Source: an uncultured bacterium (GTDB lineage Bacteria > Electryoneota > Electryoneia > Electryoneales > Electryoneaceae). Taken from it: a DNA stretch of 64,000 nt. The stretch covers positions 14,970 to 78,969 of the forward strand of contig CAZKGR010000014.1 in the NCBI GenBank assembly GCA_964552465.1. The letters run 5' to 3'. Shown piece by piece: positions 20,309-48,519 of this stretch. Below the pieces are notes generated by a model. That model worked only from the letters and a program-made list of their open reading frames with translations, was not told the origin of the DNA and did not search any database. The stretch's first letter is position 1. Every line of letters begins with the position of its first letter. A program made the position numbers and the translations under genes.

Positions 20309-21610
20309 GTGCACGTGGAACGATTCATCGGCGTGCTTGGGGTGTTTGTATTAATGGGGATTGCGTGGCTTCTGTCAACGAATCGGCGCGCGATCAATTG
20401 GCGTACGGTCAGTGTGGGAGTTGGATTACAGGTCGCCTTTGCATTGTTGATTTTGCGAACCGGTCCAGGCGAGCTGGTCTTTGAGGCGGCGCGTGCTTTC
20501 ATCTCCAACATTCTGAGTTATACGGATCAGGGTGCCTATTTCATCTTCGGCAACTTATACCTCTCAGGAACCAACATCGCTGAATCCATCCCCGGCGCAA
20601 TGCTTGGCAAGGGTTTCGAGGTATTTGATCCCGCGTCGGGTGGTATGGTCGGCCTCGGGACGATCTTCGCGTTTCACGTGCTTCCCACCATCATTTTCTT
20701 TGCCTCATTGATGGCACTGCTGTATCACCTCGGAATCATGCAGCAGATCGTGCGCGGATTCGCGTGGCTGATGAAGCGGACGATGAAAACCAGCGGTTCG
20801 GAGTCGTTGTCGGCAGCGTCGAACATCTTTGTCGGTCAGACGGAAGCGCCGTTCGTGGTCAAACCGTTCCTCGCGAAGATGACGAACAGCGAGATAATGG
20901 CGATCATGTCGGCCGGATTCGCGACGGTAGCCGGTGGTGTGCTGGCGGCGTATGTACGCTTTGGGGTTGACGCTGGTCACCTGATGGCGGCATCGCTGAT
21001 GAGTGCGCCTGCAGCGTTGGTCATGGCCAAGATCATGGTTCCGGAGACGGAGAAAAGTGAAACCGCCGACTCGATGAAGATGCACGTCGAAAAGACTTAC
21101 AGCAATCCGATTGACGCTGCGGCTGGTGGAGCAACTGACGGTCTCAAGCTGGCGGTTAATGTCGCCGCGATGTTGATCGCCTTCATCGCGCTGGTCGCGT
21201 TGATCAACGGTCTGCTCGGTTGGATCGGAGGCTTCTTCGGCGTGAGCGACCTTTCGTTACGGATGATCCTCGGTTACGCGTTCAGCCCGCTGGCATTCGT
21301 GATGGGTGTGGATTGGGCGGATGCCCTGGACGTTGGCTCGCTGCTCGGCGCGAAGATCACTATCAACGAGTTCCTTGCGTTCATTGACTTGGCAGCGCTG
21401 GAAGGCGTGATCAGCGAACGTAGCTTCATCATCTCAACGTATGCGCTGACCGGATTTGCGAACTTCTCATCCATCGCGATCCAAATCGGCGGGATTTCGG
21501 TGCTGGTTCCGGAACGTCGCGCGACGCTCGCCCGTTACGGCCTTCGTGCTATGATCGCCGGTGCATTGGCTTCCTGGCAGACAGCTGCGATTGCAGGGAT
21601 TTTGTTGTGA
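20309..21610 (+). CDS. nupC: NupC-family concentrative nucleoside transporter
   Basis: Polytopic membrane protein with NupC/CNT family blocks; GTG start; ends with a TGA stop. Confidence 0.85.
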   Translation: MHVERFIGVLGVFVLMGIAWLLSTNRRAINWRTVSVGVGLQVAFALLILRTGPGELVFEAARAFISNILSYTDQGAYFIFGNLYLSGTNIAESIPGAMLGKGFEVFDPASGGMVGLGTIFAFHVLPTIIFFASLMALLYHLGIMQQIVRGFAWLMKRTMKTSGSESLSAASNIFVGQTEAPFVVKPFLAKMTNSEIMAIMSAGFATVAGGVLAAYVRFGVDAGHLMAASLMSAPAALVMAKIMVPETEKSETADSMKMHVEKTYSNPIDAAAGGATDGLKLAVNVAAMLIAFIALVALINGLLGWIGGFFGVSDLSLRMILGYAFSPLAFVMGVDWADALDVGSLLGAKITINEFLAFIDLAALEGVISERSFIISTYALTGFANFSSIAIQIGGISVLVPERRATLARYGLRAMIAGALASWQTAAIAGILL

Positions 21611-21698
21611 TGGATTTGCCCCAGGTGTCATCCTGAACGTAGTGCCTGTCAGCCGTAGCCTCGGCGTAGGTTGAAAGGATCTCTCGTTTGATAGTGTG

Positions 21699-21730
21699 AC
21701 CCGGTCCGGCAGCTGCCGGACCGGGTTTTT
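21699..21730 (+). terminator. intrinsic terminator CCCGGTCCGGCAGCTGCCGGACCGGG followed by a T-run
   Basis: Perfect GC-rich hairpin followed by TTTTT, downstream of nupC. Confidence 0.65.
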
Positions 21731-21776
21731 ACTCATTCCTCAGCATATATTAATATAGATCTATATCCCAATATCT

Positions 21777-23911
21777 ATGGGGGACAATGCCATGCGTACC
21801 CTGATGATCTTGATTATCGTCCTTCTTCTACCCATTGTTGTAATCGCCCAAGACAGCTTGAACGTCAGCATGGTAGCCACGATGTTTGAATCATGGCATA
21901 TCGGCGAGGAAATAGATGTCGCAGGCAATTACGCCTATGTCCTCACCGAAGCAACTGGGCTTCGTATTGTAGATATTAGCGATTCATACTCGCCGGTTGA
22001 GATAGGATATCTTCCCTTAAATTGGTTGCCGTATTCAATAAGCGTAGAAGGTGACTATGCTTACAGAGGTGGATTGTTGACGTTAGTGAGGCGGCTAATC
22101 CTATAGAGATTTCATCCTATGAGGTTATTGGTCCGGCGGGTGGTTTAAAGGTAGTAGGCGATTATGCCTACGTAGCTGACGGTAATGCCGGTCTACGTGT
22201 GTTCGACGTGAGTGATCCATACAATCCCGATCATATAAGTATTTGCAACACCGGAGGTATCTCTCACGATGTAGATGTTGCAGGTAATTACGCGTACGTA
22301 GGTGATGGGGGATATCTTCGAGTAATTGACATCAGCAATCCACATGCGATTATCGAGGTTGGTTCATGCCAAACATCGGGATTTGCCGAGAAAGTGTCAG
22401 TAGCAGACGGATATGTTTACGTAACTGACGATGAATGGACTGGATACCTGAGTGTCGTTGACGTTAGCGATCCACTGGAACCAACAGAGGTAGGTGCAAC
22501 TGCTATTGGCCAATATGGATTAAAAGACGCTGTTGCATTGAATGGTTACGTTTATCTCGCATATGGTGGCGACTTACTTGTCTTTGATGTAAATGATCCG
22601 ACCAACCCTACTCAAGTGGCCTCCTGTCAGGTAGAAGAAAATGCTTGGGGTGTAGCGATCTCTGGAGATCAGGTAAGTGTAGTATGTCGGTTCAGTGCCA
22701 TGAGCGTGATTGATGTCAGCAACCCTCTGGTGCCAACAGTAACGGGTTCCTATTTCGCTCCGGGGCGACTCTATAACGTGGCCATTTCTGATGGATATGC
22801 ATACTTGGCTGACGTAGAAGAAGGCTTACTGGTGGCAGAAATCAACTCTCCAAATGGACCGGTAGAAATTGGTAGTTTTGAAACACTAGGTGAGCCATAT
22901 GATGTCGCTGTAGCAGATGGCTTTGTTTACTTGACAGATTCTTTGGAAGGATTACAAGTATTTGATGTCAACAATCCATATTATCCTTTCATAATAACTA
23001 CAATTGATACTTATAGTTCTTTCGTTGCAATTGCAGGTCAACATCTTTATGTGGCAAGTCCATCTCTCTACATATTTGACATTAGCAATCCGTATGTTCC
23101 AATACAAATTGGATATCTTGGGGTAGGTTTTCTTAGCGATATGATTGTTGAAGGAAATCATGCGTACTTAGTGGATTATAATGCTGGCCTACGTGTTGTT
23201 GATATAAGTGATCCCACCTCACCGATTGTTGTTGGATCCCTGCCCATGCAAGCACTATCTGTTGATGTGTCTGGGGATTATGCTTATCTAGCAGCCGAAT
23301 TCGATGGTTTAGTAATAGTTGATATAAGTGATCCCGCCGATCCAATCCAAATCGCCTCATATAATTTGCAATCCTATCGAACAGAAGAAGTAAAGGTCGT
23401 AGATGGATACGCTTACGTAGGATACGAACAGTCCCCTGGCTTTCCACGCACCAGATATATGCGTGTAATCAATGTGACTAATCCTGCTACTCCGATAGAG
23501 GTCGGCTACTATGAAACTCCAGGTGAACTGAAGGACATTGCGGCAGAGAACGGATTCGTGTATGTCGCTGACAAGTTCTACTTCCACATCCTCGACTGTA
23601 CTCAGGCGCTCCCTGTCGACGAGAAAATGATTGACCTGACGCCTGTATCCTTCAGTCTGGGCGCAGCCTATCCGAATCCCTTTAACCCGTTAACGACCTT
23701 GAGGATAGACCTTCCGCATCCGTCAAACCTGCAATCAGTGGTTTACAACATGCTCGGCCAACCGGTTGCGATGCTCGCAGATGGTCGGTTCCTCGCTGGT
23801 CAACACATGCTGACCTTCGACGGGACCGCCTTGGCGACAGGACAATATTTCATTCGTGTGCAAGTTGTCGGACACTTGGATGAGACCCGCAAAGTGGTGT
23901 TGCTGAAATAA
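21777..23911 (+). pseudogene. LVIVD-repeat beta-propeller protein with T9SS C-terminal sorting domain; reading frame broken by a 1-nt shift near 22070-22080
   Basis: The ORFs 21777..22106 (signal peptide plus first LVIVD repeat) and 22199..23911 (LVIVD repeats plus CTD ending KVVLLK) are one gene. The LVIVD periodicity (GDYAY..GGL.IVDVS.A.NP) continues in frame 2 from position 22073. Either a genuine frameshift or a sequencing error. Confidence 0.6.
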
Positions 23912-23958
23912 ATTGTTGACAGGTTTAGTTTCGTTGGTGGTAAACCATGGATTAGAAA

Positions 23959-24019
23959 ATGAGCAAGTTGGTATTACTAACTGAATGACACCCGGTTTGG
24001 AACCAAACCGGGCCACCCG
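23959..24019. repeat. about 60-bp repeat containing the palindrome CCGGTTTGGAACCAAACCGG, copy 1 (downstream of the LVIVD gene)
   Basis: About 90 percent identical to 28325..28385. Confidence 0.5.
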
Positions 24020-24155
24020 TCGAAGTCGAGTTTTGCCAAGTGGAAGATTCCGGGCAATGTCTCGTATCTTTGGTTATATTAATACAATCAATAACGTATG
24101 ATGGCTGGTTGGTACCAACTTCTATAAATGCTGACATCTGACTTTGGAGGATGAA

Positions 24156-26699
24156 ATGAATCCTACACGTTCAACCATTGCCCCTGTTTACCTTCGGTTG
24201 TCACTCCTGATTTTCCTGTTTCTTCCAGCTGTCCCGGCAACTGCTCAAGTAACATTCAGCAACGAAATCCAGATTACCGGTTTTGAGACTGGGATCAATT
24301 CCGTCTATAGCATAGATTTGGATGGTGATGGCGATTTCGATATTCTCTCGTCATCAGAGACTGATGACAAAATATCGTGGTATGAAAACCTGGATGGATT
24401 TGGCAGTTTCGGGTATAAACAGGAAATATCAAATGAAGCAGATTATGCCTCAGATGTGATCGGGGCCGACATAGACGGAGATGGAGACTATGACGTCATC
24501 TCTGCTTCACGGCTCGATTATAAAATTGCCTGGTACGAAAATCTAGATGGCCTTGGCAATTTCGGGCAACAGCACGTCATTTCATCCAACGCTGCCTGGG
24601 CGACATCTGTTTGTAGTGCAGACCTCGATGGCGATGGTGATGTCGATATCCTCTCCTCATCCTGGACGGACAACAAAATCGCCTGGTATGAAAACCTGGA
24701 TGGGTGGGGGAACTTCAGTCCTGAGATCATAATCACTACCTCCTGCTCCGGCGCAAATGATGTCATCTGCAAAGATCTGGATGGTGATGGAGATCTGGAT
24801 GTTCTTTCTGCTTCAGATCATGACCCCAATATTGCGTGGTATGAGAACACAGATGGATTGGGAACATTCGGTGCACAACAAACAATTTCGAACTACGCTG
24901 ATGGGGCGAAAACCGTATTCAGCACAGATTTAGACGGGGATGGGGACAACGACGTAGTCTCTGCATCAGAAACGATTGGCGAAATATCCTGGCAGGAGAA
25001 TCTTGACGGTCTCGGCAGCTTCAGCGTCGAGCAAGTCATCGGAACCAGCACGTGGGACGTCCGTTCGCTATACGGTGACGATATGGATGGAGATGGGGAT
25101 TGTGATTTGCTCTCTGCACACGGTAGTTCCAGAGTTTCTTGGTTTCAGAACACAGATGGATTAGGAAACTTCGGTTGGCAAAGGTATTTGTCGGAGAGGT
25201 CGCGAGGTGTGGCGGATGTCATCACAGCAGACCTGGATGGCGATGGGGATAAGGAGGTTATATCAGCTGCAGACGAGTATGATTATATCGAATGGTTTGA
25301 AAACCTGGATGATTCAGATTATTTCGGCCAAACGAATATTATTACTGTTACTACAGTAGGACCGAGATGTGTCTATTCAGCTGATCTTGATGGTGATGGG
25401 GATAATGATCTACTCTCAGGCTCTGAGTACGATGACAGAATAGCGTGGTATGAGAATCTGGATGGAGAAGGAACATTTGGTCTCCAACGGACAATTGCGA
25501 TAGGTGCTCATTCTGGTATGAAAATTACATGCGGAGACTTGGATGGCGATGGTGACCTGGATGTCCTTTCCACTTCAAATTCTTATTTGTATTCAGATCG
25601 GTTGGCTTGGTACGAGAACCTGGATGGGTTAGGGAACTTCGGACCACAATACGTAATTAGACAAGGTAATGGTTCACCCATAGCATCATGCGCAGATTTG
25701 GATGGCGATGGTGATCTTGACGTCATTTCTGGTTCACATAGTGGATGGTTGACTTGGTATGAAAATCTGGATGGATTAGGGGATTTCGGGCTGGGTAGCC
25801 CGATCCCTCCCGATCTTGACGGCGCACAAGCTGTTTGTTGCGCGGATATGGACGGTGATGGTGACATCGATGTAGTCGCCAGCGATGGTGAGTTTTGGGG
25901 GGAAATTGTCTGGTATGAGAACCTGGAAGGATCAGGTGTATTTGGTGACCGGCAATTAGTGTCAGGTGCAAATGATAGCAGAACAAGTATTTTCTGTACC
26001 GATATCGACAACGATGGCGATATCGATGTAATCTCAGGAACCTACTCTGGTGGTGAACTCTATTGGTTTGAAAACCAGGATGGACTCGGCTCTTTCGCTG
26101 CTGGAACTCACCATGTATCACTCTATGCGTCGGGAACAACTTCGGTGTTCAGCGTCGATCTTGATAATGACGGTGATAATGATTTCCTCGCAAGTTCTAT
26201 CTATATGCCGAATATAACCTGGTATGAGAATACGGACGGTGCCGGCACTTTCGGCCCTCTTCAAGTTGTGTTCAACAATGCGATAGGATCTGAATCCATA
26301 TTCAGTGCAGATTTCGATAACGATGGCGACTATGATGTGGTCTCGGCATCACTTAATGAACATAAGATCTCGTGGTTCCGCAACGAGTTGATAACTGGAG
26401 TAGGCGAAGAAGTCATAGCTTCAGCTAATCCGAAAGGTTACCGGATACGATCAGTGTTCCCCAATCCTTTCAATCCAGTTACTACTATAGAAATTGAACT
26501 CCCAACTGTTTCTGGTCTGCGGCTGAGTGTTTTCGATGTCCAGGGACGGCGAGTGGCGATTCTTAATTCTCGTCGTCTTCCTGCTGGTTCACATTGCTTT
26601 TCGTTCGACGGTACGGACAGTGCGAGCGGAGTCTATTTTATCAGGGCTTTTGTGCCAGGTAAAATGAATGAGATACGAAAAATTATCCTGATGAAGTAG
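24156..26699 (+). CDS. FG-GAP/VCBS-repeat protein (about 13 repeats) with T9SS C-terminal sorting domain
   Basis: Signal peptide; about 13 repeats of DLDGDGDxDVxS...WYENLDGxGxF; C-terminal NPFNP...VYFIRA...KIILMK CTD. GGAGGA just before the ATG at 24156. Confidence 0.8.
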   Translation: MNPTRSTIAPVYLRLSLLIFLFLPAVPATAQVTFSNEIQITGFETGINSVYSIDLDGDGDFDILSSSETDDKISWYENLDGFGSFGYKQEISNEADYASDVIGADIDGDGDYDVISASRLDYKIAWYENLDGLGNFGQQHVISSNAAWATSVCSADLDGDGDVDILSSSWTDNKIAWYENLDGWGNFSPEIIITTSCSGANDVICKDLDGDGDLDVLSASDHDPNIAWYENTDGLGTFGAQQTISNYADGAKTVFSTDLDGDGDNDVVSASETIGEISWQENLDGLGSFSVEQVIGTSTWDVRSLYGDDMDGDGDCDLLSAHGSSRVSWFQNTDGLGNFGWQRYLSERSRGVADVITADLDGDGDKEVISAADEYDYIEWFENLDDSDYFGQTNIITVTTVGPRCVYSADLDGDGDNDLLSGSEYDDRIAWYENLDGEGTFGLQRTIAIGAHSGMKITCGDLDGDGDLDVLSTSNSYLYSDRLAWYENLDGLGNFGPQYVIRQGNGSPIASCADLDGDGDLDVISGSHSGWLTWYENLDGLGDFGLGSPIPPDLDGAQAVCCADMDGDGDIDVVASDGEFWGEIVWYENLEGSGVFGDRQLVSGANDSRTSIFCTDIDNDGDIDVISGTYSGGELYWFENQDGLGSFAAGTHHVSLYASGTTSVFSVDLDNDGDNDFLASSIYMPNITWYENTDGAGTFGPLQVVFNNAIGSESIFSADFDNDGDYDVVSASLNEHKISWFRNELITGVGEEVIASANPKGYRIRSVFPNPFNPVTTIEIELPTVSGLRLSVFDVQGRRVAILNSRRLPAGSHCFSFDGTDSASGVYFIRAFVPGKMNEIRKIILMK

Positions 26700-26864
26700 G
26701 TGCATGTCAGAAAAACGAGACGCGTTATGATGAGCCGAATTGAGACGCTTCCTGTACTTCCTGATCACTCACTTCTCAGTGAGTGTTTTTTTCTCATTAT
26801 CGATTGAAGACTATGTATTCTGCCTCGTTACCGATTAGCTTCTTCATGTTGATGAGGATTCCAC

Positions 26865-28328
26865 ATGGAGACCGAAGTCATGAGATCTATTCTTCTCGTT
26901 GTCTGTTTGCTGGCAGTGTCATCTGCCCTCGCGAGCCCAGTTTCTCTGGAAGAAGCGACGATAGCTGCCCATCGATTTGTCGAGTTCAGAACCGCATTAG
27001 ATCAATGGGATGGTCAAACGCCTGCAGAGATTCGTTTGGAACGCGTGATTGAGCATGAAGCGCAAATGTTGGCGTACTACTTCGAAGTTGATCCCGCCGG
27101 TTGTGTGCTGATATCCGGATTCCGCGAACTGCCACCGGTCAAGATGTACTCAGAACATCACCGCCTGACCTTTGAACAACCTGAATCCGCAGGGGTGATG
27201 ATCACTCAAGTGTTGCAGCAAAAGGCAGCGACCATCCGCAAGTATCCAGACCTCCCGGCAATGGCAGCTGCAGGCGTAGATGTCACGGCTGTGCAAGAGT
27301 GTTACGACTTGTGGCAAGTATTCACCCAACCGTCACACGAGGCGTTTGTCGAAGAAGCGGTTGCTCGAGAACTTGATGAATACATCCCCGGCACCATCCT
27401 GATCGATTCCATCTGGCATCAGGAAGCACCGTACAACAATTTCTGTCCGATCGAGAACACGGAGAACTGCAAAGTCGGCTGTGTCGCGACCGCTACCGCA
27501 CAAATCATGTATTACTGGCAGTGGCCAGAAGCAGGGCAGGGATCACATGGTTATACGTGGAATGGGCAACTTGTCTCCGCGAATTTCAGCGATCCGTACG
27601 ATTGGAACGACATTCTGCCGGAATACGGGCAACCATGGGAACACACCGAAGACGAACTCAACGCGATCGCTGAATTGTGCTTTGAAGTCGGCGTAGCATA
27701 TGAAATGAACTATGGGGTGGATGGCTCCGGTGCGTTCACTTCAGACGTGATCACGATTCTACCACAGTATTTCCGTTACCTCGATGGCATAGCTGAAGAG
27801 TCCAGAGTCGCGTATCCGGATGATCAGGCATGGTTCGACATGCTTTGCACTGAGCTTGATCTGGAACGTCCGATGATGTACACCATCCGAAACGCTGATT
27901 GGGGTCACGCTATTGTAGTTGATGGATATCGCGTCGAGTTGGATGTCAACGAGCTACACATAAACTATGGCGGGTGGGAGGATATATTCCTCGGGTGGTA
28001 CGCGTTGGATGCCATTCCTTATGCCGACTGGCCCGATACCGAAACAGCGTATCGCTACATCCAGCCAGATACCCAGGCCGGCGATCCCGATGCTGTAGTG
28101 ATCACGCTTACCCCGGAACAATACCCATACATGATAGTCCCGCAAGGCGGATCCTTCACCTATGACCTGACACTCGAAACTAACTTGGATCAACCTGTTT
28201 ACGGATGTCCAAAAGATCCTCTTCGTCCAGTAGAGACGAAAAGCCTCATCCAGGTAGAAAGGGCGGCCCTGTTTGCTTGTCAAACAGGGTTTCATTTGTT
28301 AGGTAGTAGTCGATGGATAAGTGTATGA
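26865..28328 (+). CDS. C10-family (streptopain/PrtT-like) cysteine peptidase with N-terminal pro-domain; 3-prime truncated, no T9SS CTD
   Basis: Signal peptide; catalytic Cys block NCKVGCVATATAQIMYYWQWP and His block WGHAIVVDGYRVE. Homology to the paralog at 29817..31730 stops after TLETNLDQP. The last roughly 42 codons derive from repeat-like sequence and run through a terminator-like hairpin. Confidence 0.7.
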   Translation: METEVMRSILLVVCLLAVSSALASPVSLEEATIAAHRFVEFRTALDQWDGQTPAEIRLERVIEHEAQMLAYYFEVDPAGCVLISGFRELPPVKMYSEHHRLTFEQPESAGVMITQVLQQKAATIRKYPDLPAMAAAGVDVTAVQECYDLWQVFTQPSHEAFVEEAVARELDEYIPGTILIDSIWHQEAPYNNFCPIENTENCKVGCVATATAQIMYYWQWPEAGQGSHGYTWNGQLVSANFSDPYDWNDILPEYGQPWEHTEDELNAIAELCFEVGVAYEMNYGVDGSGAFTSDVITILPQYFRYLDGIAEESRVAYPDDQAWFDMLCTELDLERPMMYTIRNADWGHAIVVDGYRVELDVNELHINYGGWEDIFLGWYALDAIPYADWPDTETAYRYIQPDTQAGDPDAVVITLTPEQYPYMIVPQGGSFTYDLTLETNLDQPVYGCPKDPLRPVETKSLIQVERAALFACQTGFHLLGSSRWISV

Positions 28329-28385
28329 GCAGGTTGGTATCATTCACTGAATGACACCCGGTTTGGAACCAAACCGAGCCACCCG
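28325..28385. repeat. about 60-bp repeat containing the palindrome CCGGTTTGGAACCAAACCG, copy 2 (overlaps the stop codon of C10 copy 1)
   Basis: About 90 percent identical to 23959..24019. Confidence 0.5.
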
Positions 28386-28452
28386 CCCGGGGGACATAAC
28401 CATCTGTAGACTCTCTTGATGCGGGATGTAGAGCTTTAGAAGGGATTGAGGC

Positions 28453-29106
28453 ATGCTTAAGAACAGGACGAGAAAATACCAGACGGGTCTACTCTGGCAA
28501 ATTGTGTTGTTGTTATTGATATGTCCTGAGATTCTATCTGCGAAAACTCCTGAGTTCTCCTTCTCATTAAACTATAAACCAAATGTGCAGCCGAGTCTGA
28601 ATTCATTCCATACACAGCATTCTACCTTCGTGTCACCAAGGTCCAGCGATTCTTTTCCTGATTCTGGCATTCTGATGGGCAAATATCAAAATGATCTATT
28701 TAAAGATTACCCATCAGGTTTCTCTCCATTTATCATATCAACCGAATCAGGCAGCTCGTCTGAATCAGAATCTGGAAGCTCAACTTTGGAAGAAATTGGA
28801 TACATATTGGCGATGGAAACCGTGTTTACTGGAATGAGTTATCTCGCAAGCCGAGAGGAGGGTTCAGGTCCTGCTATCGCAGGAGGATTCGATGTCCTTA
28901 TAGGATTGGCCGGTATACCAAATGCGACCATACAAGACTCAAATGCGAAAAAGGCTGGCTACTTCCTGATCTCTGCCGGGTTTATCGCAAAGTCGCTCTA
29001 TAATTTTCATTATGGTGAAAACCATGATACGAAAACCCGATTTTTAACGAATTTCATTGGATTCAATGTACTTGTGTTTACTGGATATTATCTGGACACG
29101 TTGTAG
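28453..29106 (+). CDS. hypothetical secreted/membrane protein (217 aa)
   Basis: N-terminal hydrophobic signal; Ser-rich low-complexity linker; hydrophobic C-terminal half. AT-rich relative to its surroundings. Confidence 0.4.
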   Translation: MLKNRTRKYQTGLLWQIVLLLLICPEILSAKTPEFSFSLNYKPNVQPSLNSFHTQHSTFVSPRSSDSFPDSGILMGKYQNDLFKDYPSGFSPFIISTESGSSSESESGSSTLEEIGYILAMETVFTGMSYLASREEGSGPAIAGGFDVLIGLAGIPNATIQDSNAKKAGYFLISAGFIAKSLYNFHYGENHDTKTRFLTNFIGFNVLVFTGYYLDTL

Positions 29107-29135
29107 GAATTCTCTGACTGAAAGACGGTGACTGT

Positions 29136-29423
29136 ATGTCGAGAGGAACAAAGCTCAAACCACTGAAAATGGCGCAATTCCAGGCATTTCTATTCTCACT
29201 CTTGGGTTTGATCGCTGGCATCATCTATTCAATTGGTGGGGTGATAGTTGATCTGTTCACGATTGGTTTGAACTGGGGAACTGCCATGGCATTCATGGCG
29301 TTAGTGGGTATGCCAGTTAGTTTTGCAGCAATCGGATTTATGCTGGGACTTGTTGAGGCTGTGCTTTATAATTTGTTCGCGAAGTGGTTTGGTGGATTTA
29401 AAATGGATCTCTTTAAAGACTAG
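29136..29423 (+). CDS. small hydrophobic membrane protein (95 aa, 2-3 TM)
   Basis: Highly hydrophobic ORF directly downstream of 28453..29106. Confidence 0.35.
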   Translation: MSRGTKLKPLKMAQFQAFLFSLLGLIAGIIYSIGGVIVDLFTIGLNWGTAMAFMALVGMPVSFAAIGFMLGLVEAVLYNLFAKWFGGFKMDLFKD

Positions 29424-29458
29424 GGACTAACGTATTATAGACCTGCTCATCTCATAAA

Positions 29459-29539
29459 GACGAAACGCCTCATCCAGGGAGGGAGAATGAGGCGTTTTGC
29501 ACTGCATATGGTTAACAGGCGGTGAGTGGCAAGTCACCG
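29459..29539. repeat. about 80-bp repeat carrying an intrinsic terminator (AAACGCCTCATCC...GGATGAGGCGTTTT) and a second small hairpin, copy 1
   Basis: Near-identical to 31732..31811. A degenerate third copy lies inside the 3-prime end of C10 copy 1 (about 28235..28260). Confidence 0.55.
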
Positions 29540-29553
29540 TCAGGCAAAGCCTG

Positions 29554-29673
29554 GGGATTTCGGTGCTTGTCCCCAAACGGAGGAAGAATCTGGCCCGCTA
29601 TGGTCGGCGCGCGAAGATCGTCGGCACCCTGGCATCTTGTCAGACCGTCGCGATTACAGGGGTTTTGTCTTGA
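29554..29673 (+). pseudogene. fossil 3-prime fragment of a nupC-like gene (last 39 codons plus stop)
   Basis: Translates in frame as GISVLVPKRRKNLARYGRRAKIVGTLASCQTVAITGVLS*, against the true nupC C-terminus GISVLVPERRATLARYGLRAMIAGALASWQTAAIAGILL*. About 70 percent nucleotide identity; no upstream coding continuation. Confidence 0.6.
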
Positions 29674-29816
29674 TTGACTAATACTCCTTGACTTAGACGC
29701 TCACATTCATGTGAGTATTTCTCTTTTTTTGTTCATTAATACGCTATTTCTTGCGCCAATCTCTTGAATTAGTTAGCTTCTTGTTAGCCGTACAAACATA
29801 GCAGGGAGGGGAAATC

Positions 29817-31730
29817 ATGCGAACCATGATGCTTGTTTGCTGTATTGTGCTGGTAATTTCCACTGCACTGGCTGACACTGTTACTCTTGAGGATGCGACA
29901 ACCGCCGCACAACGATTTGTTGAGTACCGCACCGCGTTGGATTCATGGGATGAAAACACACCGACTGATATTCGTCTTGAAAGAATCATCGAACAGGATG
30001 GAATGCCAATCGCGTACTACTTCGAGGTTGAACCTGCGGGTTGTGCGCTAATCTCGGGTTACCGTGAACTACCCCCGGTCAAGATGTACTCCGAACAGTA
30101 TCGCCTTGAATTTGATCATGCTCAATCCGCCGGGATGATGATCACCCAGGAATTGCAACAGAAGGCGGCGACTCTCGCTCGACATAACGATCTGGCCTCC
30201 ATGTCAGCCGCTGGCATTGACGTATCCGCAGTGCAGGAGTGCTATCAACTCTGGCAGGTGTTCACGCAGCCATCACTAGACTCGTTTATGGAAGAAGCCG
30301 CCAGCCGTGAACTGGACGAATATGTGCCCGGAACCTATCTGGTCGACGCGATCTGGCACGAATTTACGCCTTACAATGCTTACTGTCCTGTTTATGATAA
30401 TGAACACGCCCAGGTCGGTTGTGTGGCGTTGTCGTCAGCTCAGATAATGTACTACTGGCAGTGGCCACCGGCTGGACAATCATCACATCAATACCTGTGG
30501 AATGGGGAATGGATTTCTGCGAATTTCAGCGATCCCTATGATTGGAACAACATCTTGCCAGAATACGGTCAACCGTGGGAACACACAGTGGCCGAGCTGA
30601 ACGCGATCGCGGAATTGTGTTTTGAAGTTGGCGTAGCATATGAAACGATGTACAGCGTATTTGGATCAGGAGCCGATCCAACAGACATTCCGCTCGTTCT
30701 CCCTCAGTATTTCTTCTACCAACTTGGTATTTCAGAAGAATGGAAGATCAATTACCCGGATGATCAAGCCTGGTTCGATGTATTGTGTGCAGAGTTGGAC
30801 TTGGAACGTCCGATGATGTACATCGTCGAAAACGACTTATGGGGGCACGCATTCGTCGTTGATGGTTATCGCGTCGAGTTGAATGTCAATGAGCTCCATA
30901 TCAACTATGGGGGGTGGGAGAATATCTTCCTCGGTTGGTATGCAATTGACTCTATACCCTACTCCGATTGGCCTGATGCTGAAAGAGCATATTTGAATTT
31001 CCAGCCGGATTTCGACGGCTATGATCCAATTCCATTATCTATCAATGTTATTCCAGAAGAACAGCAATACCTGCTTGTTCCCCAAGGTGGGTCCTTCGCT
31101 TACGATGTAACCCTGGAAACAAACATAGATCAACCTCAATTCGGTTGGGTCTGGATTGAACCCATCCTGCCTTCAGGGCAACCGTACGGTCCCATCCAAA
31201 GCTTGCGTATGCTTTTCCTGCCCGGGATGTCGCTTTCTATCTCAAACATAGTGCAGGATGTTCCGCTTGATGCACCGCTTGGCTATTACCAGTACTGGAT
31301 TCATGTGGGATCGACGATGGGTGTTCCTGTATCATCCGACTTTTTCCCGTTCTCTGTTTACGCACCGGAACCAGACAACGTGGCGGGTAATCATGAATGG
31401 GAATCGCACGGCCTCGAACGTCTTGTAGCAGGATCATCCAGCGAACCATCGGGATTGCAGCCACAAGTATGCACCGTCGCCCCGATCTATCCAAATCCAT
31501 TCAACGGTTCGACAACGATTACAATGTCGCTTGCAGAAACGGCTATGGTCCAAATTGATGTTGTGAATACGCTTGGGCAGACAGTGTTGCAAATCACGAA
31601 AGGAGTCCATTCTCATGGGCAACATCGGTTCCAGTTTAATGCCGAGGCGCTGACAAGCGGTGTGTATTTCGTGACTACAAGTGCAGCGGGGCAAAACGTT
31701 AATGTTCAAAAGATCCTTCTACTGCAATAA
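29817..31730 (+). CDS. C10-family (streptopain/PrtT-like) cysteine peptidase with T9SS C-terminal sorting domain
   Basis: Signal peptide; pro-domain; catalytic Cys HAQVGCVALSSAQIMYYWQWP and His WGHAFVVDGYRVE; C-terminal CTD (YPNPFNGSTTI...VYFVTT...KILLLQ). GGGAGGGG RBS. Confidence 0.8.
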   Translation: MRTMMLVCCIVLVISTALADTVTLEDATTAAQRFVEYRTALDSWDENTPTDIRLERIIEQDGMPIAYYFEVEPAGCALISGYRELPPVKMYSEQYRLEFDHAQSAGMMITQELQQKAATLARHNDLASMSAAGIDVSAVQECYQLWQVFTQPSLDSFMEEAASRELDEYVPGTYLVDAIWHEFTPYNAYCPVYDNEHAQVGCVALSSAQIMYYWQWPPAGQSSHQYLWNGEWISANFSDPYDWNNILPEYGQPWEHTVAELNAIAELCFEVGVAYETMYSVFGSGADPTDIPLVLPQYFFYQLGISEEWKINYPDDQAWFDVLCAELDLERPMMYIVENDLWGHAFVVDGYRVELNVNELHINYGGWENIFLGWYAIDSIPYSDWPDAERAYLNFQPDFDGYDPIPLSINVIPEEQQYLLVPQGGSFAYDVTLETNIDQPQFGWVWIEPILPSGQPYGPIQSLRMLFLPGMSLSISNIVQDVPLDAPLGYYQYWIHVGSTMGVPVSSDFFPFSVYAPEPDNVAGNHEWESHGLERLVAGSSSEPSGLQPQVCTVAPIYPNPFNGSTTITMSLAETAMVQIDVVNTLGQTVLQITKGVHSHGQHRFQFNAEALTSGVYFVTTSAAGQNVNVQKILLLQ

Positions 31731-31731
31731 C

Positions 31732-31811
31732 AACGAAACGCCTCATCCAGGGAGGGGAATGAGGCGTTTTGCACTGCATATGGTTAACAGGCGGTGAGTG
31801 GCAATTCACCG
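31732..31811. repeat. about 80-bp terminator-containing repeat, copy 2 (downstream of C10 copy 2)
   Basis: Near-identical to 29459..29539. Confidence 0.55.
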
Positions 31812-31939
31812 GCTGGTACAACCGATTGAAACCGAGATCCTTCTCGTGCCTGCGGCACGTCAGGACGACTTCGTGGGACACTTTGGGGACAAAGTGTCCC
31901 GTATTTGCATGCTTTCTATAGCCTGCAGCCTACAGCCCG

Positions 31940-32377
31940 TCAATTCTGCATGCCGTTGATCTCGATCTTGCGCGGCTTGGACTCTTCCGGTTTCGGCAAG
32001 CGGATGGTCAGGACGCCGTTATCGAAATTCGCATGGATCGAGTCACTCTTGATCGAGTCGCGAACGTTGAACCGACGCTTGAACTGGCCGGTCATACGTT
32101 CGCTGCGATATACAGTCTCGCCTTCCTTTGATTCCATCGCCGGACGCTCACCGCTCAGGACGAGAACGCCGTCCTCGAGGGTGATTTCGATACTGTCCTT
32201 GGTGACGCCGGGCAGATCCGCGTGAATGCGGAACTCGTGCTCATCCTCAACAATGTCGACTCGTGGACGCCAACGCTGTTCGGGTTGTTCTTCGTTGTTG
32301 CGAACTTCGTTGATCAGGTTCATCCAACGTGTCATCTCAGTTGTCGGGCCGCAATATCTGTGCTGATGCCTGTGCAT
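31940..32377 (-). CDS. Hsp20/alpha-crystallin-family small heat-shock protein
   Basis: Alpha-crystallin domain (RVDIVEDEHEFRIHADLPGVTKDSIEITLEDGVLVLSGER). Start chosen at the ATG at 32377 (AGGAAG 5 nt upstream); 32335 is an alternative start. Confidence 0.8.
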   Translation of the reverse strand: MHRHQHRYCGPTTEMTRWMNLINEVRNNEEQPEQRWRPRVDIVEDEHEFRIHADLPGVTKDSIEITLEDGVLVLSGERPAMESKEGETVYRSERMTGQFKRRFNVRDSIKSDSIHANFDNGVLTIRLPKPEESKPRKIEINGMQN

Positions 32378-32439
32378 GTGTACTTCCTTTCGTGTATTCG
32401 ATTGTTGATGAATGCGTTTTGCATCTCGCCGATCATTAA

Positions 32440-32455
32440 GCAACCGTTGTGCCAG
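32440..32455 (-). promoter_or_regulatory. sigma-54 (-24/-12) promoter candidate CTGGCACAACGGTTGC upstream of hsp20
   Basis: Reverse complement of the plus strand at 32440..32455 reads TGGCAC-N5-TTGC, matching the consensus GG/GC elements and spacing. About 60 nt upstream of the hsp20 start. Confidence 0.5.
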
Positions 32456-32706
32456 AATCTATGGTATCCATGTAACTCGTGATATATAGCCAAATATATG
32501 GATCGCTCGATGCGGAGAGCAATTGGCTTCATCTATAATCTGGCAGTGGCATGTCTGATTGACAGGTGCTGTTCTGCAATTACGGCAGGAGTACTCATTC
32601 AAGGTCTCAGACTTGGGAGAGGGTTGAGCAAAACTGTTGGGAACGCAGTCCATCAGAGCCGCGTGTGTGAGCCGATAGACAACCAACAGTCATTCAGGAG
32701 AACATT

Positions 32707-40490: not shown

Positions 40491-41942
40491 TTATCTGACC
40501 AGCATCACCTTTTGTACCTGGTCAAGGTATCCTGGAACGGTTGCCCGGACGAAATACAATCCGCTGGACAATCCTGAAGCGTCAAAGACCAAGCTGTGCG
40601 AACCAGCGTTCGCAATTCCCTGGTGCAGAGTAGCTACCTGCTGTCCGTTGACGTTGTACACGGCAACAGTCAGGTCAGCCGCATCGGGAAGCGCAATATC
40701 GACCGTCGTTGATGGGTTGAACGGGTTCGGATACGCAGCGTTCATCGCATACGCATTCGGTAGCTGATTATTTGAACCAGCGCCAGTGATAGTAAAGTCG
40801 CTGTTCGTCCAGTCCGACGGGTCAAACACATAATCGCCGTCTGTCGCGACACCGGTCTTGATAAATGGGAAGCTGTCCTGAACCATCAGACCAGGGTTGT
40901 TCGGAACGCCGACGGTACCGATGAACTCATACTCACCCATTGGTGCACCCGCGGGAACTACCTGAGTCTGGCCGGTAACGCTGACATCCATGAATGCCAT
41001 CATGTTGAATGCAATGTTGGCCAGTGGTCCAACGGTAGATCCATCTGGAAGGGTGACAAAGGTCCGGTAACGGACGCCGTTCGCCTGGAGGAAGGTGTTG
41101 TTGATGAATTGAGCATCGTAGACAACATCGCCACCACCGGCGGGTATGGTCGTATTTGTCGGCGTCAGGATCAGTTGCACGGATTCTGGTTCTGCGCCTA
41201 CAACCGCCATGTTCGATTGGATGACTTCGTGCGTGTTGTCATTCTGCACATACACGACAACCGAGATGTTGTCATCCATGATCAGGTCGCCATTCAGTGT
41301 GATCGGCCAGTCGAACGAGACGTCGAAATTGACAGTTTCGTTAGTGCCGATGGAGAACGGCAGTCCGTCATCATCTGGAGCCATGTCGAGCATGTCATAA
41401 TGCCACTCACTCTGACCGTTCCAACCCGTGAAACCGTTGTAATAATTGTTCATGAGCCCGAAACGGATCTTGTAGTTGCCAGACACAGCAACATCGGCCG
41501 ATGTAACCTGGACCGACATATCGACAGAATTGTCTGAAGCAGATGCGCTACAATCAAGTGCAATCGGACTTTCGATAGCGAGACGGTTATCAACAGCAGT
41601 CTGCAGCAGTTGCGGCGTGATTGGCCAGCGGTCGAGCAGACCGTCCACCATCAATGTGGGGAGTAAGTTAATCGGATAGTAGTCGAACCGACCGGTATGT
41701 TCAGCCCCGTTTATTTCCTGCCAAGGGTCGCCAGCATACCAGTTGGCGTGGAATACAATTATGCTGACATCCTCACCTCCGTTGCCTTCGAAGAAAGTCT
41801 GGATCGTCTGCGCCGCAGACGGACAGGTGCCTCAACCATGACCTGTGAATTCTTCGAACATCACTTTTCGAGGGAATGCGTGGGCTGATGCGGCCAGCAG
41901 GCCAATCACCATTATGCCCAGGGTAAGACGACGTGCAAACAT
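40491..41942 (-). CDS. secreted thioredoxin-fold (Omp28/redoxin-like) protein with T9SS C-terminal sorting domain; in-frame TGA at 41832..41834 read as selenocysteine (UxxC)
   Basis: ATG at 41942 with GGGAGG 6 nt upstream. Signal peptide MFARRLTLGIMVIGLLAASAHA, then FEEFTGHG-[TGA]-GTCP, a U-G-T-C motif at the thioredoxin CxxC position. The hairpin GUCUGCGGCGCAGAC starts exactly 11 nt after the UGA. The frame stays open to a T9SS CTD (AYPNPFNPSTTVDIALP...LYFVRA...KVMLVR). The ORF track split it at the TGA. Confidence 0.55.
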
Positions 41943-42064
41943 CACTGCCTCCCGTGTTTTCGGTGTCTGATCTACATGCAACTTTAGGGTATCTTATAGT
42001 CTAGGGTTGAAATCAGAGACATACAAGCTTCAGGTGTTAGTTTTCAGAGAATATCCAATAAAAA

Positions 42065-42089
42065 CGCCCGGTGGATTTAACCACCGGGC
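42065..42089 (-). terminator. intrinsic terminator GCCCGGTGGATTTAACCACCGGGC followed by a T-run on the minus strand
   Basis: Perfect 9-bp GC stem immediately downstream of the 42120 gene stop. Confidence 0.6.
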
Positions 42090-42119
42090 TTGTAATTCCG
42101 AATACATAAACTCCAATAT

Positions 42120-43562
42120 CTAGCGAACCAGCATCACCTTTTGCATCTGATCCATGTGACCCGGAACTGTTGCACGGACAAAGTACAGGCCGCTGGCTAA
42201 GCCTGAAGCATCAAACGTCAAGTTGTGTAATCCAGCGTTTGCAATTCCCTGGTGCAACGTTGCGACCTGCTGTCCGCTGACGTTGAAGACTGCAACTGTC
42301 AAGTCAGCCGCTTCCGGCAACGCGACCTCAAGCGTTGTGGTCGGGTTGAACGGGTTCGGATACGCAGCATCCATGGCGAATTCGGACGGCAGCGTAATTA
42401 CGGCATCGCTACCTTCACTCGAGGTTTCGAACCAGTTGCTGTTTGGGAACTCAAAATTGCCGCCATCAGGAGCATTACCCAGTTTCAAGAATTGGAAACT
42501 GTCTTCCGCGACCAGGGTCCACGGTGTCGGTCCGGCTTGCGCGACAAATGTGTAAGTTCCAACTGGTGCCATGCCAGGAACTGCTTGAACTACATCAGTA
42601 CGAACAATGTCAACACCTGGAATGTAGGTGATGTTGTAGGTGTTGATCGGGTAGTTATTACCGTTCGGAAGAATCGCGAGCGTGCGCACCTGGCCCGGTG
42701 TTGCCACATCATAGTTGTTGGTGATCAAGGCATCAAAGACCAGGTTTCCGCCGTTGCCGGGAATGTAGATCGGATCATACATCGGCATCAGATCGAGCGT
42801 GATGTCTGGAGGTGTCCAACCAACCGCAGCCATTTCCGACTGGAGGACTTCACGACCACTGTCATTCTGCACATAGGCAATGACTGTGACGTTATCCTCG
42901 GTGATCGGATCACCGTTCAGCGTAATCGGCCAAGGGAACGAGACATCGAAGTTGATCGTTTCGTTGGCATTGATGGAGAATGGTAGACCGTTATGATCCG
43001 GCGCCATATAGAGCATGTCGTAATGCCAAACGCTCTGACCATTCAACCCGGTGAAACCAGAGTATTCGTTCTGCATCAGTCCGAAACGAATCTTGTAGTT
43101 CCCAGACACAGGTACATTTGCTGAGGTGACTTCAACAGACATGTCAACCGCATTGCCGACAATATTTGCCGTGCATTGAATCGCAATCGGGCTGTCTACC
43201 GCGAGGCGCGTGTTCATCGCCGTTGTCAATGTTGCATCACTGATCGGCCACTGGTCAATAACACCATCCACCATCAGCGTAGGTAGAGCCATTATGTTGT
43301 AGTAGCCACAACGACCGTTATGATCAGCGGCGTTCAAGAGTTGCCATGGGTCACCGGCATACCAGTCTTCGTGGAACACGATCATGGTGGTATTGTCAGC
43401 GTTGTTTACATGAAAGTTGTAGATCGTCTGCGCCGCAGACGCGCAGCCACCTCAACCATGACCCGTGAATTCTTCGAAGATCACCTTGCGTGGGAATGCG
43501 TGGGCTGATGCGGCCAGCAGACCGATCATCATGATGCCCAAGGTTAGACGACGTGCAAACAT
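42120..43562 (-). CDS. paralogous secreted thioredoxin-fold T9SS cargo protein; in-frame TGA at 43452..43454 (UxxC = U-G-G-C)
   Basis: ATG at 43562. Near-identical signal peptide; FEEFTGHG-[TGA]-GGCASAAQ. The identical 15-nt hairpin lies 11 nt downstream of the UGA. C-terminal T9SS CTD. About 60 percent aa identity to the 40491 gene elsewhere. Confidence 0.55.
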
Positions 43563-43759
43563 CTCTGCCCCCTTGTCTTTGTTGTCTGATCTACATACAA
43601 CTTTTTGTGTATCGTGTAGTCTAGGAAGGAAAACTTAGGGATTCAAGCCTCGGACACAAAGAAATCAAAAAACTCTTTCGCTCCACTTCCTGATTCCGTT
43701 GCTGAGGTTAAAGCGTGAACGGGGACACTTTGTCCTCAAAGTGTCCCCGGATCATCCAA

Positions 43760-46279: not shown

Positions 46280-46564
46280 TTTCTTCTCCCTGGATGGTGA
46301 TAATCGAGTGCGCGTGGCCGATCCACAGCTGGTTTTCATGACGATACACTTTAATATCAACTTCGCGTGGTGAAACGTCAAGCGAAATGGGCGGGTTTGT
46401 CAGAAATATTTGGCGATTATGGAGATTGGAAAGGAGAAGCAGTGAGTCGCTAGATATGGTTTGAGCACGAAAACGGGAAGCCCAAAGGCTCCCCGTTTTG
46501 TTCTATCATCCATGCGATGTGCGCGCCGCCGAGCACGCGTCATCGCAAATCAGATTATTGCATC

Positions 46565-47775: not shown

Positions 47776-47820
47776 AGTTGATAATCCTCTTAGTGAACCC
47801 GTTGCTGCTTGTAAGGGTTG

Positions 47821-47894
47821 TGGGCGTTACTGGAGTCGAACCAGTGACCTCTGCCATGTCAAGACAGCGCTCTAACCAACTGAGCTAAACGCCC
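47821..47894 (-). tRNA. tRNA-Val (anticodon GAC)
   Basis: GGGCGTTTAGCTCAGTTGGTTAGAGCGCTGTCTTGACATGGCAGAGGTCACTGGTTCGACTCCAGTAACGCCCA; cloverleaf with a 7-nt anticodon loop TTGACAT. Confidence 0.85.
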
Positions 47895-47996
47895 GACCTC
47901 AAAATCACTGCCAATGATTTCTCATTGTTCAGCGGACATGTTGAACATGTGCAGGTTCAGTGTCTTCGTTCACTCCAGTCACTATTCCCGCGTTAG

Positions 47997-48079
47997 TACC
48001 GGGAGCCGGACTCGAACCGGCACAGGGAATTCCCCGGGAGATTTTAAGTCTCCTGCGTCTACCATTCCGCCACCCCGGC
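47997..48079 (-). tRNA. tRNA-Leu (anticodon TAA), long variable arm
   Basis: GCCGGGGTGGCGGAATGGTAGACGC...CTTAAAATC...GTGCCGGTTCGAGTCCGGCTCCCGGTA. Confidence 0.85.
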
Positions 48080-48179
48080 ATATTCGAATGGGTCCGGAAT
48101 CGGTGGAGCCGAATCGTCTGGCCCATCCCTGGTAGTCAAAGAACCTTCCGGCGTACGCCTCGCCATCCTCACCATCTTG

Positions 48180-48252
48180 AGGCGGCGGCCGGATTCGAAC
48201 CGGCGAATAAAGGTTTTGCAGACCTTCGCCTTAGCCACTTGGCCACGCCGCC
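48180..48252 (-). tRNA. tRNA-Cys (anticodon GCA)
   Basis: GGCGGCGTGGCCAAGTGGCTAAGGCGAAGGTCTGCAAAACCTTTATTCGCCGGTTCGAATCCGGCCGCCGCCT. Confidence 0.85.
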
Positions 48253-48343
48253 GTGTTACTGCTGAAACATTTGTTTCGCACGACCCGTTTCGGCGAGGCG
48301 TAAAACCCCGAACCAGGCGTCCTGAGGACCCTCACCCGGGGGC

Positions 48344-48419
48344 TGGAGCGAGAGACGGGACTCGAACCCGCGACAACCACGTTGGCAACGTGGAGCTCTA
48401 CCAACTGAGCTACTCTCGC
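48344..48419 (-). tRNA. tRNA-Gly (anticodon GCC), CCA encoded
   Basis: GCGAGAGTAGCTCAGTTGGTAGAGCTCCACGTTGCCAACGTGGTTGTCGCGGGTTCGAGTCCCGTCTCTCGCTCCA; layout parallels E. coli tRNA-Gly(GCC). Confidence 0.85.
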
Positions 48420-48519
48420 CTGTCCAACATTGGCGAAACCACTACTGATTTCGCCCTCATTCAAGCGACCGGAAAATGTACGTTCCGGCCTCATAGAATG
48501 CAAGATTCCCAAGGGGACG

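Follow-up and report, generated by a model that had tools for sequence, protein, structure and literature searches.

A flexible islet of secreted-protein genes between nupC and hsp20, with a probable tandem C10 peptidase unit and two putative single-lesion pseudogenes

Results

We analyzed a 64,000-nt stretch of DNA from an uncultured bacterium of the Electryoneota lineage (contig CAZKGR010000014.1, positions 14,970 to 78,969; referred to as the window, whose coordinates are used throughout). Between nupC and hsp20 the window carries an islet of ∼10 kb (21611-31830, + strand) holding genes for secreted proteins, apparently type IX secretion system (T9SS) cargo. We consider it likely that this is a flexible islet in which cargo genes are gained, duplicated and lost, that a unit holding a C10 peptidase gene has been duplicated in tandem within it, and that two of its genes, one encoding an LVIVD-repeat protein and the other the first C10 copy, are pseudogenes with a single lesion each. 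The gene order is nupC, split LVIVD, FG-GAP, C10 copy 1, open reading frame (ORF) 217, ORF95, C10 copy 2 and hsp20 (− strand), and the right flank continues from hsp20 to htrA and lplA. The original prediction for this locus had described it as rearranged, which agrees with our analysis: its content varies between relatives, and it contains a putative duplication junction at which a terminator is joined to a fragment of nupC.

The LVIVD Gene Carries a Small Out-of-Frame Deletion

The LVIVD gene is split at 22072/22073. The 5′ part (21777..22072, + strand, frame 0 to a stop at 22106) encodes a signal peptide and ∼1.5 repeats (Pfam LVIVD 2.2e-09, 36.9 bits). The 3′ part (22073..23911, + strand, frame 2) encodes at least eight repeats (LVIVD 4.8e-69; 227.9 bits over eight stretches of PF08309, above the gathering score) and a type A sorting domain. 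The lesion itself (22066..22079, + strand) was located by frame translations, which give the junction ...GDYAYRGG / IVDVS.... Frame 0 reads ...SISVEGDYAYRGG and then reaches the stop at 22106; frame 2 is open from ∼22053, and homology restarts in it at 22073 as IVDVSEAANPIE (‘IVDVSEAANP’). When the two parts are conceptually fused, the product can be aligned over its whole length to 11 full-length homologues (∼700–870 aa), and compared with these it has a gap of 6–8 residues in the second LVIVD unit, which is 35 aa long vs. 41–44 aa in the neighbouring units. We therefore estimate the lesion to be an out-of-frame deletion of ∼19–22 nt, not a multiple of three, in repeat 2. The original prediction had placed an interruption near 22070, which is correct, but had taken it for a 1-nt shift. 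No second lesion was found in the 613 LVIVD codons downstream of the junction.

A programmed frameshift was also considered and rejected, as no slippery heptamer was seen when reading the sequence from 22053 to 22106 and 6–8 repeat residues are missing. An intact close allele of the gene was not found among 5.8 billion proteins, where the next match is 38% identical. A search for the undeleted allele with the 30-mer to the right of the junction gave 0 matches in metagenome_contigs, a collection that lacks the source contig too.

C10 Copy 1 Has Lost Its Sorting Domain by an Internal Deletion

The retained part of C10 copy 1 (26865..28204, + strand; Peptidase_C10 1.3e-51) covers the signal peptide, the prodomain, the catalytic domain and the first strands of a middle domain. 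It is followed by an out-of-frame tail of 41 codons and a TGA at 28326-28328 (28205..28328, + strand). The match of copy 1 to copy 2 (67% identity over 443 aa) stops at residue 447 (...TLETNLDQPVYG). The sequence just beyond, 28205-28257, is 77% identical to 31702-31754, which holds the last codons of copy 2 and the left arm of its terminator. Aligned to copy 2 and to the gene of the closest relative (contig L007, see below), 28207..28233 (+ strand) is a relic of the original C10 end, the last 8 codons and the stop (VQKILFVQ*) in the +1 frame, and 28235..28257 (+ strand; T0) corresponds by sequence comparison to the left arm only of the terminator that we call T. As the old C10 end survives at 28205-28257, the lesion is therefore an internal deletion and not a cut 3′ end. 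It amounts to 557 nt vs. copy 2 and 566 nt vs. the L007 gene, both 2 mod 3, and its junction at 28204/28205 shows GG microhomology (TGG in the L007 gene). The fold and terminator scan placed a new terminator-like hairpin, CCCTGTTTG...CAAACAGGG plus TTTCATTT, at 28265..28291 (+ strand). The tail thus runs over the old stop, the terminator relic, this hairpin and part of a 98-nt repeat, and no homologue covers it (coverage at most 91%). The original prediction had the paralog match end in the region of TLETNLDQP with no C-terminal sorting domain (CTD) after it, and had noted a degenerate terminator copy and a hairpin in the tail; all of this is present, and only the description of the gene as 3′-truncated has to be replaced by the internal deletion.

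Copy 1 scores higher against Peptidase_C10 than copy 2 (176 vs. 142 bits, cut-off 26). Its motif GCVATATAQ corresponds in alignment to the catalytic Cys motif of interpain A, and GHAIVVDGY to the catalytic His motif (GHAFVIDGY); in 3BB7 (u41268) the Cys position of interpain A is occupied by Ala, and we take this entry to be an active-site mutant. An AlphaFold model of copy 2 (mean pLDDT, the predicted local distance difference test score, 76; catalytic part >85; middle part ∼50) predicts that the deleted region, copy-2 residues 444–629, spans the middle beta domain, modelled with low confidence, and the CTD apart from its last half-strand. The half-deleted beta domain of copy 1 would probably misfold, and the product, if made, would probably be unstable.

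The full-length C10 homologues closest to copy 1 are 633–639 aa long and carry a CTD (75, 68, and 58% identity, the first being the L007 protein). Neither the short C10 form nor its tail was found among 5.8 billion proteins, so the possibility left open by the original prediction, that relatives share the short form, did not materialize. No second lesion was found in the 447 codons of copy 1. Recombination among different cargo genes at the sequences encoding their sorting domains was considered and rejected, as these sequences share only 58–61% nucleotide identity.

In both LVIVD and C10 copy 1 the frame is broken relative to intact homologues and part of a domain is missing, features by which their sequences classify them as pseudogenes.

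Both Lesions Recur in Independent Assemblies

The window is identical to the JGI contig Ga0171653_1000159. The exact 487-aa product of C10 copy 1 is called on 16 contigs and the exact 109-aa product of the LVIVD 5′ frame on 11. Assemblies from JGI (3300013112, 3300007512), ENA (SAMN10231912, SAMN10231893, SAMN10231914) and Logan (SRR8062348) are 99.9–100% identical over the junctions that each of them spans, and several contigs from different pipelines and different samples span each junction (L001, L006, L058, L059, L060). As the lesions are identical in the JGI, ENA and Logan assemblies, they are not assembly artefacts. The original prediction had allowed for other sequence data to remove the frameshift; instead it recurs in independent assemblies.

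The sampled population is nearly clonal. SAMN10231912 differs by three single-nucleotide polymorphisms (26928, 26930, 28463), and in SAMN10231914 the 3′ part of LVIVD is longer by an in-frame insertion of 9 nt at 22713 (L002 641-649); otherwise the locus is 100% identical between samples.

Three Islet Proteins Carry T9SS Sorting Domains

Sorting domains were called with TIGR04183 at a cut-off of 23 bits, and Pfam Por_Secre_tail/PF18962 was used alongside. Scores above the cut-off were obtained at the extreme C-terminus of the LVIVD 3′ part (26.9 bits), FG-GAP (27.8 bits) and C10 copy 2 (40.4 bits). The signal peptide of LVIVD (in the 21777..22106 fragment) and its CTD (in frame 2) lie on separate reading frames. 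The N-termini of FG-GAP and C10 copy 2 are hydrophobic, judged by eye. C10 copy 1 gave no sorting-domain match with Pfam or TIGR04183, and only the 8 out-of-frame codons of the old last strand are left of its CTD. The CTD is required for T9SS export, and RgpB without its CTD piles up in the periplasm (PMC5445135). This is in line with the earlier suggestion of a non-exported C10 copy: copy 1 is probably a non-exported pseudogene, and the 487-aa product, if made, would reach the periplasm by its signal peptide and would not cross the outer membrane without a CTD. Components of the T9SS machinery itself (PorK/L/M/N, SprA, PorV) were not noticed in those Pfam annotations of the window that were read, which were not searched specifically for them.

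A second group of T9SS cargo genes lies at 40491-46381 on the − strand. It comprises two Omp28-like paralogues with Por_Secre_tail (40491..41654 and 42120..43385, − strand) and an 873-aa protein (43760..46381, − strand) of which the sorting domain is the only part recognized. The latter gene contains the most AT-rich patch of the window (45151-45851, GC 0.29–0.39).

A Putative Tandem Duplication of the nupC-3′–C10–T Unit

C10 copy 2 (29817..31730, + strand) is intact with a CTD (Peptidase_C10 3.3e-41; Por_Secre_tail 7e-12; modelled CTD strands 565–635) and is the faster-evolving paralogue. Its Cys202 and His344 are invariant in a 25-sequence alignment. Between copy 2 and the 3′ end of hsp20 lies the native terminator T (T2, 31726..31823, + strand; fold z −5.65). 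A second complete T, consisting of a bidirectional hairpin and a second hairpin, is found upstream of copy 2 (T1, 29453..29551, + strand; 83% identical to 31700-31823, core 95% over 86 nt; fold z −4.4). Directly joined to T1 is a relic of nupC, its last 41 codons and stop (29551..29673, + strand), which is in frame and has 69–70% nucleotide identity to 21482-21614; its translation, LGISVLVPKRRKNLARYGRRAKIVGTLASCQTVAITGVLS*, is 68% identical to the resident nupC product. A hairpin 3′ of the relic (29699..29716, + strand) belongs to the type that terminates nupC in L024. Its counterpart upstream of copy 1, a hairpin and T-run at 26766..26785 (+ strand) likewise of the L024 nupC terminator type, marks the left end of the homology between the two C10 units.

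T adjoins the 3′ end of hsp20 in L007 (15639-15724) and L024 (843-938), and it occurs with compensatory stem changes in L008 (11984-12080), L009 (8638-8735) and L011 (12726-12810). The variants of the first stem are GCCTCATCC/GAATGAGGC, GCCCCATCC/GGATGGGGC and GCCCCGTCC/GAACGGGGC, and the second hairpin is also conserved. From its position next to hsp20 across the clade, T is therefore best described as an ancestral, clade-wide bidirectional terminator and not as a dispersed recombination repeat. The fusion of the T1 end to the nupC 3′ relic would then be the junction of a tandem duplication of a [nupC-3′–C10–T] unit (or of a deletion). In whole-gene quartets the two C10 copies group together against L007 and L008 in 492–500 of 500 bootstraps, with copy 2 on the longer branch. 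The third codon positions of the two copies are near saturation (41–47% identity).

The nupC–hsp20 Gap Varies Between Relatives

In order to compare the islet between relatives we used contigs in which nupC is 82–91% identical (L007-L011 and L024). The flanks, TK-nupC on one side and hsp20-htrA-lplA on the other, are conserved, and the content of the gap differs. L024 and L011 have a gap without a C10 gene. L008/L010 and L009 have the order nupC-C10-hsp20 with one full-length C10. The closest relative, L007, has nupC, an endonuclease gene with a CTD, C10, three unrelated genes on the opposite strand, T and hsp20. This genome has seven gene units in the gap and L007 five genes. Because the content varies between relatives with conserved flanks, the gap is a hotspot of gain and loss. 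The nearest named relatives are metagenome-assembled genomes (MAGs) of Calditrichaeota and Candidatus Electryoneota (of the Fibrobacterota–Chlorobiota–Bacteroidota, or FCB, group), and the setting is uncultured marine. A nupC search of metagenome_contigs gave distant relatives only (≤68% identity).

The Lesions Lie Outside the Repeats

The original prediction had reported a palindromic repeat of ∼60 bp that follows the LVIVD gene and overlaps the stop codon of C10 copy 1. It does both and is in fact 98 nt long. Copy A (23922..24019, + strand), with a perfect palindrome at 23992-24011, is located after the stop of LVIVD and before the start of FG-GAP, and copy B (28288..28385, + strand), which contains the copy 1 TGA, lies at the left edge of the ORF217/ORF95 module. 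The two are 82% identical overall and agree at 39/41 positions in the 3′ part that holds CCGGTTTGGAACCAAACCGG. They are the only two copies in the 64 kb, both at module borders in the islet, and no match was found in 1.36 Mb of other loci. What did not hold was their placement at the breakpoints of the lesions. The C10 junction, with only GG/TGG microhomology, lies upstream of both the terminator relic (by 30 nt) and the repeat (by 83 nt), and the lesion in LVIVD is a short deletion within the gene. The claim that repeat-mediated recombination produced the lesions is therefore not borne out, and repeat-mediated shuffling of the cargo genes is unproven.

Two other explanations of the repeat were rejected. 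There is no similarity to it upstream of the ORF217/ORF95 pair in another genome (L105), as would be expected of a native upstream region of that module, and in a 9-codon mini-ORF within the repeat the differences between the two copies are, on reading the sequence, non-synonymous.

Base Composition of the Islet

The islet has a GC content of 0.473, the flanks 0.52–0.53, and 300-nt windows outside the islet 0.523 ± 0.041. The two segments singled out in the original prediction as AT-rich, 22900..23160 and 28450..29430, are so indeed (GC 0.349 and 0.423), but are coding sequence and not scars of rearrangement: the former consists of ordinary LVIVD repeat units (+ strand) and the latter is a conserved two-gene membrane module. 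A foreign insert in LVIVD was rejected on the same grounds, as the patch aligns residue for residue with homologues without any insertion. GC at third codon positions (GC3) is 0.39–0.48 for the LVIVD 3′ part (0.39), FG-GAP (0.43), ORF217 and ORF95, 0.51–0.56 for the C10 copies and 0.55–0.69 for the flanking genes. These values are consistent with LVIVD, FG-GAP and ORF217/ORF95 being later arrivals and the C10 genes long resident.

Other Features of the Islet and Window

The left flank of the islet is the nucleoside transporter gene nupC (20309..21610, + strand; Pfam Nucleos_tra2_N/Gate/Nucleos_tra2_C, TIGR00804) and the right flank is hsp20 (31940..32443, − strand; Pfam HSP20 1.2e-25), with hsp20-htrA-lplA synteny in all close relatives. 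On reading the sequence, a GC-rich hairpin with a T-run lies 3′ of nupC (21700..21735, + strand), preceded at ∼21625 by a motif resembling repetitive extragenic palindromes (REP-like), GTGTCATCCTGAACG...AAGGATCTC. A CCCGG hairpin and the REP-like motif are also found 3′ of nupC in L007, L008 and L009. The motif has the consensus GTGTCATCCTGA[AG]CG.AG[CT]GAAGGATC, is seen 3′ of nupC in several relatives, and looks like a family dispersed through the clade: its sites are 21625-21690 and 31835-31870 in the window, 6810-6920 in L007, 9820-9860 in L008 and 6450-6490 in L009, with several copies in L011 (11285-12830). The window copy after nupC is split by 29 nt, and the copy between T2 and hsp20 is inverted.

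The FG-GAP/VCBS repeat protein (24156..26699, + strand) is intact, with 15 repeats and a T9SS CTD (FG-GAP_3 8.1e-98). ORF217 (28453..29106, + strand) encodes a conserved hypothetical membrane protein with 46 homologues, the named ones including Calditrichaeota and Marinimicrobia MAG proteins, and matched no Pfam family. ORF95 (29136..29423, + strand) encodes a small membrane protein with a weak match to DUF3566 and 355 representative clusters at E ≤ 1e-3; three transmembrane segments are predicted from reading its sequence. The same gene pair occurs in a different context in a Calditrichaeota MAG (L105/L106 5001-5862).

A sigma-70 promoter scan gave no signal (16 sites vs. 16.7 expected), and a terminator scan gave 12 sites vs. 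8.4 ± 2.6 expected. Rfam gave a single chance-level match over 21400-32700 and none for T or the 98-nt repeat. No integrase, transposase or recombinase family, Phage_integrase included, was found among the annotated genes of window positions 1-38328 and ∼41000-63000.

Elsewhere in the window, a 117-aa gene at ∼2757-3110 between uvrB and purD matches the 23S_rRNA_IVP and bAvd families and adjoins an AT-rich stretch at ∼2701; no reverse transcriptase was seen in its annotated neighbourhood. Five tRNA genes (Val-GAC, Leu-TAA, Cys-GCA, Gly-GCC, Ala-GGC) are located at 47820-48592 (− strand), upstream of infC-rpmI-rplT.

Discussion

The history that we consider likely would start from one arrangement seen in relatives, nupC–C10–T–hsp20. 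The [nupC-3′–C10–T] unit would have been duplicated in tandem, the join being kept as T1 and the 41-codon nupC relic. LVIVD and FG-GAP, and ORF217/ORF95, would have been added later at the borders of the left copy, as their low GC3 suggests. LVIVD and C10 copy 1 would each have been disabled once, by slippage or by illegitimate (microhomology) recombination. Because neither gene has a second lesion, both lesions would be young, and they would be fixed in the sampled population. On this view the exported enzyme would be copy 2, the diverged one, and copy 1 is most likely a duplicate in decay.

Several observations weigh against this history. In two ENA metaSPAdes assemblies a contig has precisely 22073 as its first position; in one of these samples the left-hand contig stops at 22127, so that the two overlap by 55 nt. 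An assembly graph that branches leaves such a signature, and the LVIVD lesion may therefore have a minor allele and not be fixed everywhere. Judged by its sequence motifs, the catalytic dyad of copy 1 is intact. The duplicated unit has diverged unevenly, with the T1/T2 core at 95% identity and both the C10 genes and the nupC relic at 69%, which calls for gene conversion, constraint on T or a more complicated history. The duplication may be older or larger, with gene conversion afterwards. The phylogenetic signal of C10 is mosaic along the gene, and the differences of the nupC relic, distributed 8:8:22 over the codon positions, are only a rough fit to a fragment decaying in situ. In addition, this genome and L007 both show a half-terminator, an inserted block and a full terminator, a pattern that simple duplication plus decay leaves unexplained.

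The contig starts at 22073 with their 55-nt k-mer overlap, together with Logan contigs that stop inside a 31-mer common to both 98-nt repeats, could be taken to mean that errors of sequencing or assembly produced the frameshift and the truncation. We find this hardly credible, since both junctions are 100% identical across pipelines and samples, spanning contigs included, neither has a homopolymer (22072/22073 for LVIVD, 28204/28205 for C10), and the loss of 6–8 residues and of 557 nt is untypical of short-read chemistry errors. Nor do we believe that the 487-aa protein without a CTD is a functional variant, for instance a periplasmic protease, which strikes us as very unlikely. Its signal peptide, prodomain and Cys–His motifs are intact, no second lesion has appeared in 447 codons, the product is identical in 16 contigs from several samples, and the region upstream of copy 1 is homologous to that of copy 2. 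Its end, however, comes from out-of-frame reading past the old stop into the terminator relic and an intergenic repeat, the deletion cuts the predicted beta domain midway (in the low-confidence part of the model), both the tail and the short form are absent from the 5.8 billion proteins, and in a nearly clonal population identity says nothing about selection.

Whether copy 2 arose in place is a further point. Copy 2 and the nupC fragment may have been imported from another lineage, or may be the remnant of a larger duplication that included a second functional nupC; we hold this to be possible but rather unlikely. The 8:8:22 differences of the relic, with an amino acid identity (68%) close to the nucleotide identity (69%), suggest that it diverged partly under purifying selection, although with just 41 codons this codon-position test is weak. 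The relic is about equally distant (61–70%) from the nupC of every relative, its downstream hairpin is of the L024 type and not of the type that follows the resident nupC, and segments of the catalytic domain lean toward a grouping of copy 1 with L007. Against this, the whole-gene quartets pair copy 1 with copy 2, the prodomain strongly so, and T1 and T2 are nearly identical. An unlikely explanation, in our judgement, is that the T hairpin, and perhaps the 98-nt repeat, act as recombination or attachment sites and that repeat- or site-directed shuffling of cassettes causes the rearrangements. In both this genome and L007 the order is C10, a left T arm, unrelated genes and a complete T, the inserted genes differ and lie on opposite strands, and the 15–22-nt duplication of the T arm resembles attL/attR; the 98-nt copies stand at the borders of the FG-GAP/C10 copy 1 block and of the ORF217 module, and T1 and T2 are 95% identical. 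Yet the gene annotations over the examined parts of the window include no integrase, transposase or recombinase family, the two inserted blocks lack common end sequences, the 98-nt repeat is limited to its two copies with none in the 1.36 Mb of other loci, and neither gene lesion is at a repeat. T is moreover a bidirectional terminator of an ordinary, conserved kind whose stem shows compensatory changes, and one ancestral insertion whose content was later replaced explains the common site equally well. The more specific idea that the loop of the T hairpin is a recurrent, site-specific entry point for gene modules seems to us highly doubtful.

The flexible islet with its duplication and decay can be compared with several known systems. 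As in other flexible genomic islets and integration hotspots, conserved flanks enclose a variable gap and part of the content has low GC3; this islet is set apart by its small size (10 kb), by the lack of any tRNA or integrase landmark and by a content that is mostly T9SS cargo genes. With integron-like cassettes and att-site islands it shares hairpins at module borders and an inserted block flanked by a partial and a complete hairpin copy. Unlike them, it lacks an array of similar sites, the examined parts of the window have no annotated integrase, and its hairpin is an ordinary intrinsic terminator kept next to hsp20. Same-strand paralogues, a kept junction fragment and one copy disabled by a microhomology deletion are what tandem duplication followed by degeneration (birth-and-death evolution) leaves behind; here, however, it is the slowly evolving copy that is broken and the faster one that keeps the export signal, and divergence differs greatly from one part of the duplicated unit to another.

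The C10 proteins have a full-length Pfam match to the family of streptopain (SpeB) and interpain A of Prevotella intermedia, Cys and His motifs that align to 3BBA/3BB7, and an N-terminal prodomain predicted by the model. They are at most ∼30% identical to solved members, have an extra middle beta domain and a T9SS CTD, and occur as two paralogues in one islet, one of them truncated. LVIVD, FG-GAP and C10 copy 2 resemble T9SS cargo of the RgpB type from P. gingivalis in combining an N-terminal signal peptide with a C-terminal sorting domain, and C10 copy 1 is predicted to be retained in the periplasm as RgpB is once its CTD is lost (PMC5445135). The host here lies outside the Bacteroidota, its kin being Calditrichaeota- and Electryoneota-like MAGs, and the CTD was lost by a natural out-of-frame deletion, whereas the RgpB truncation was engineered.

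For annotation this means a pseudogene flag for 21777..22106 with 22199..23911 and for 26865..28328, which should not be counted as three proteins; without these flags, counts of cargo based on the CTD are misleading. The half- and full-terminator pattern common to this genome and L007 is the sole thread of wider interest. If it did reflect independent insertions in two lineages, it would point to a trans-acting cassette insertion that targets terminator hairpins and feeds T9SS-cargo islets in FCB-group bacteria. The rest looks like ordinary birth-and-death evolution in a flexible islet and calls for no new mechanism. Read in this way, the locus records turnover of the secreted-protein repertoire in an uncultured marine lineage, in which the conservative protease copy would have lost its export tag and the diverged copy kept it, and both putative young pseudogenes are present in every spanning contig.

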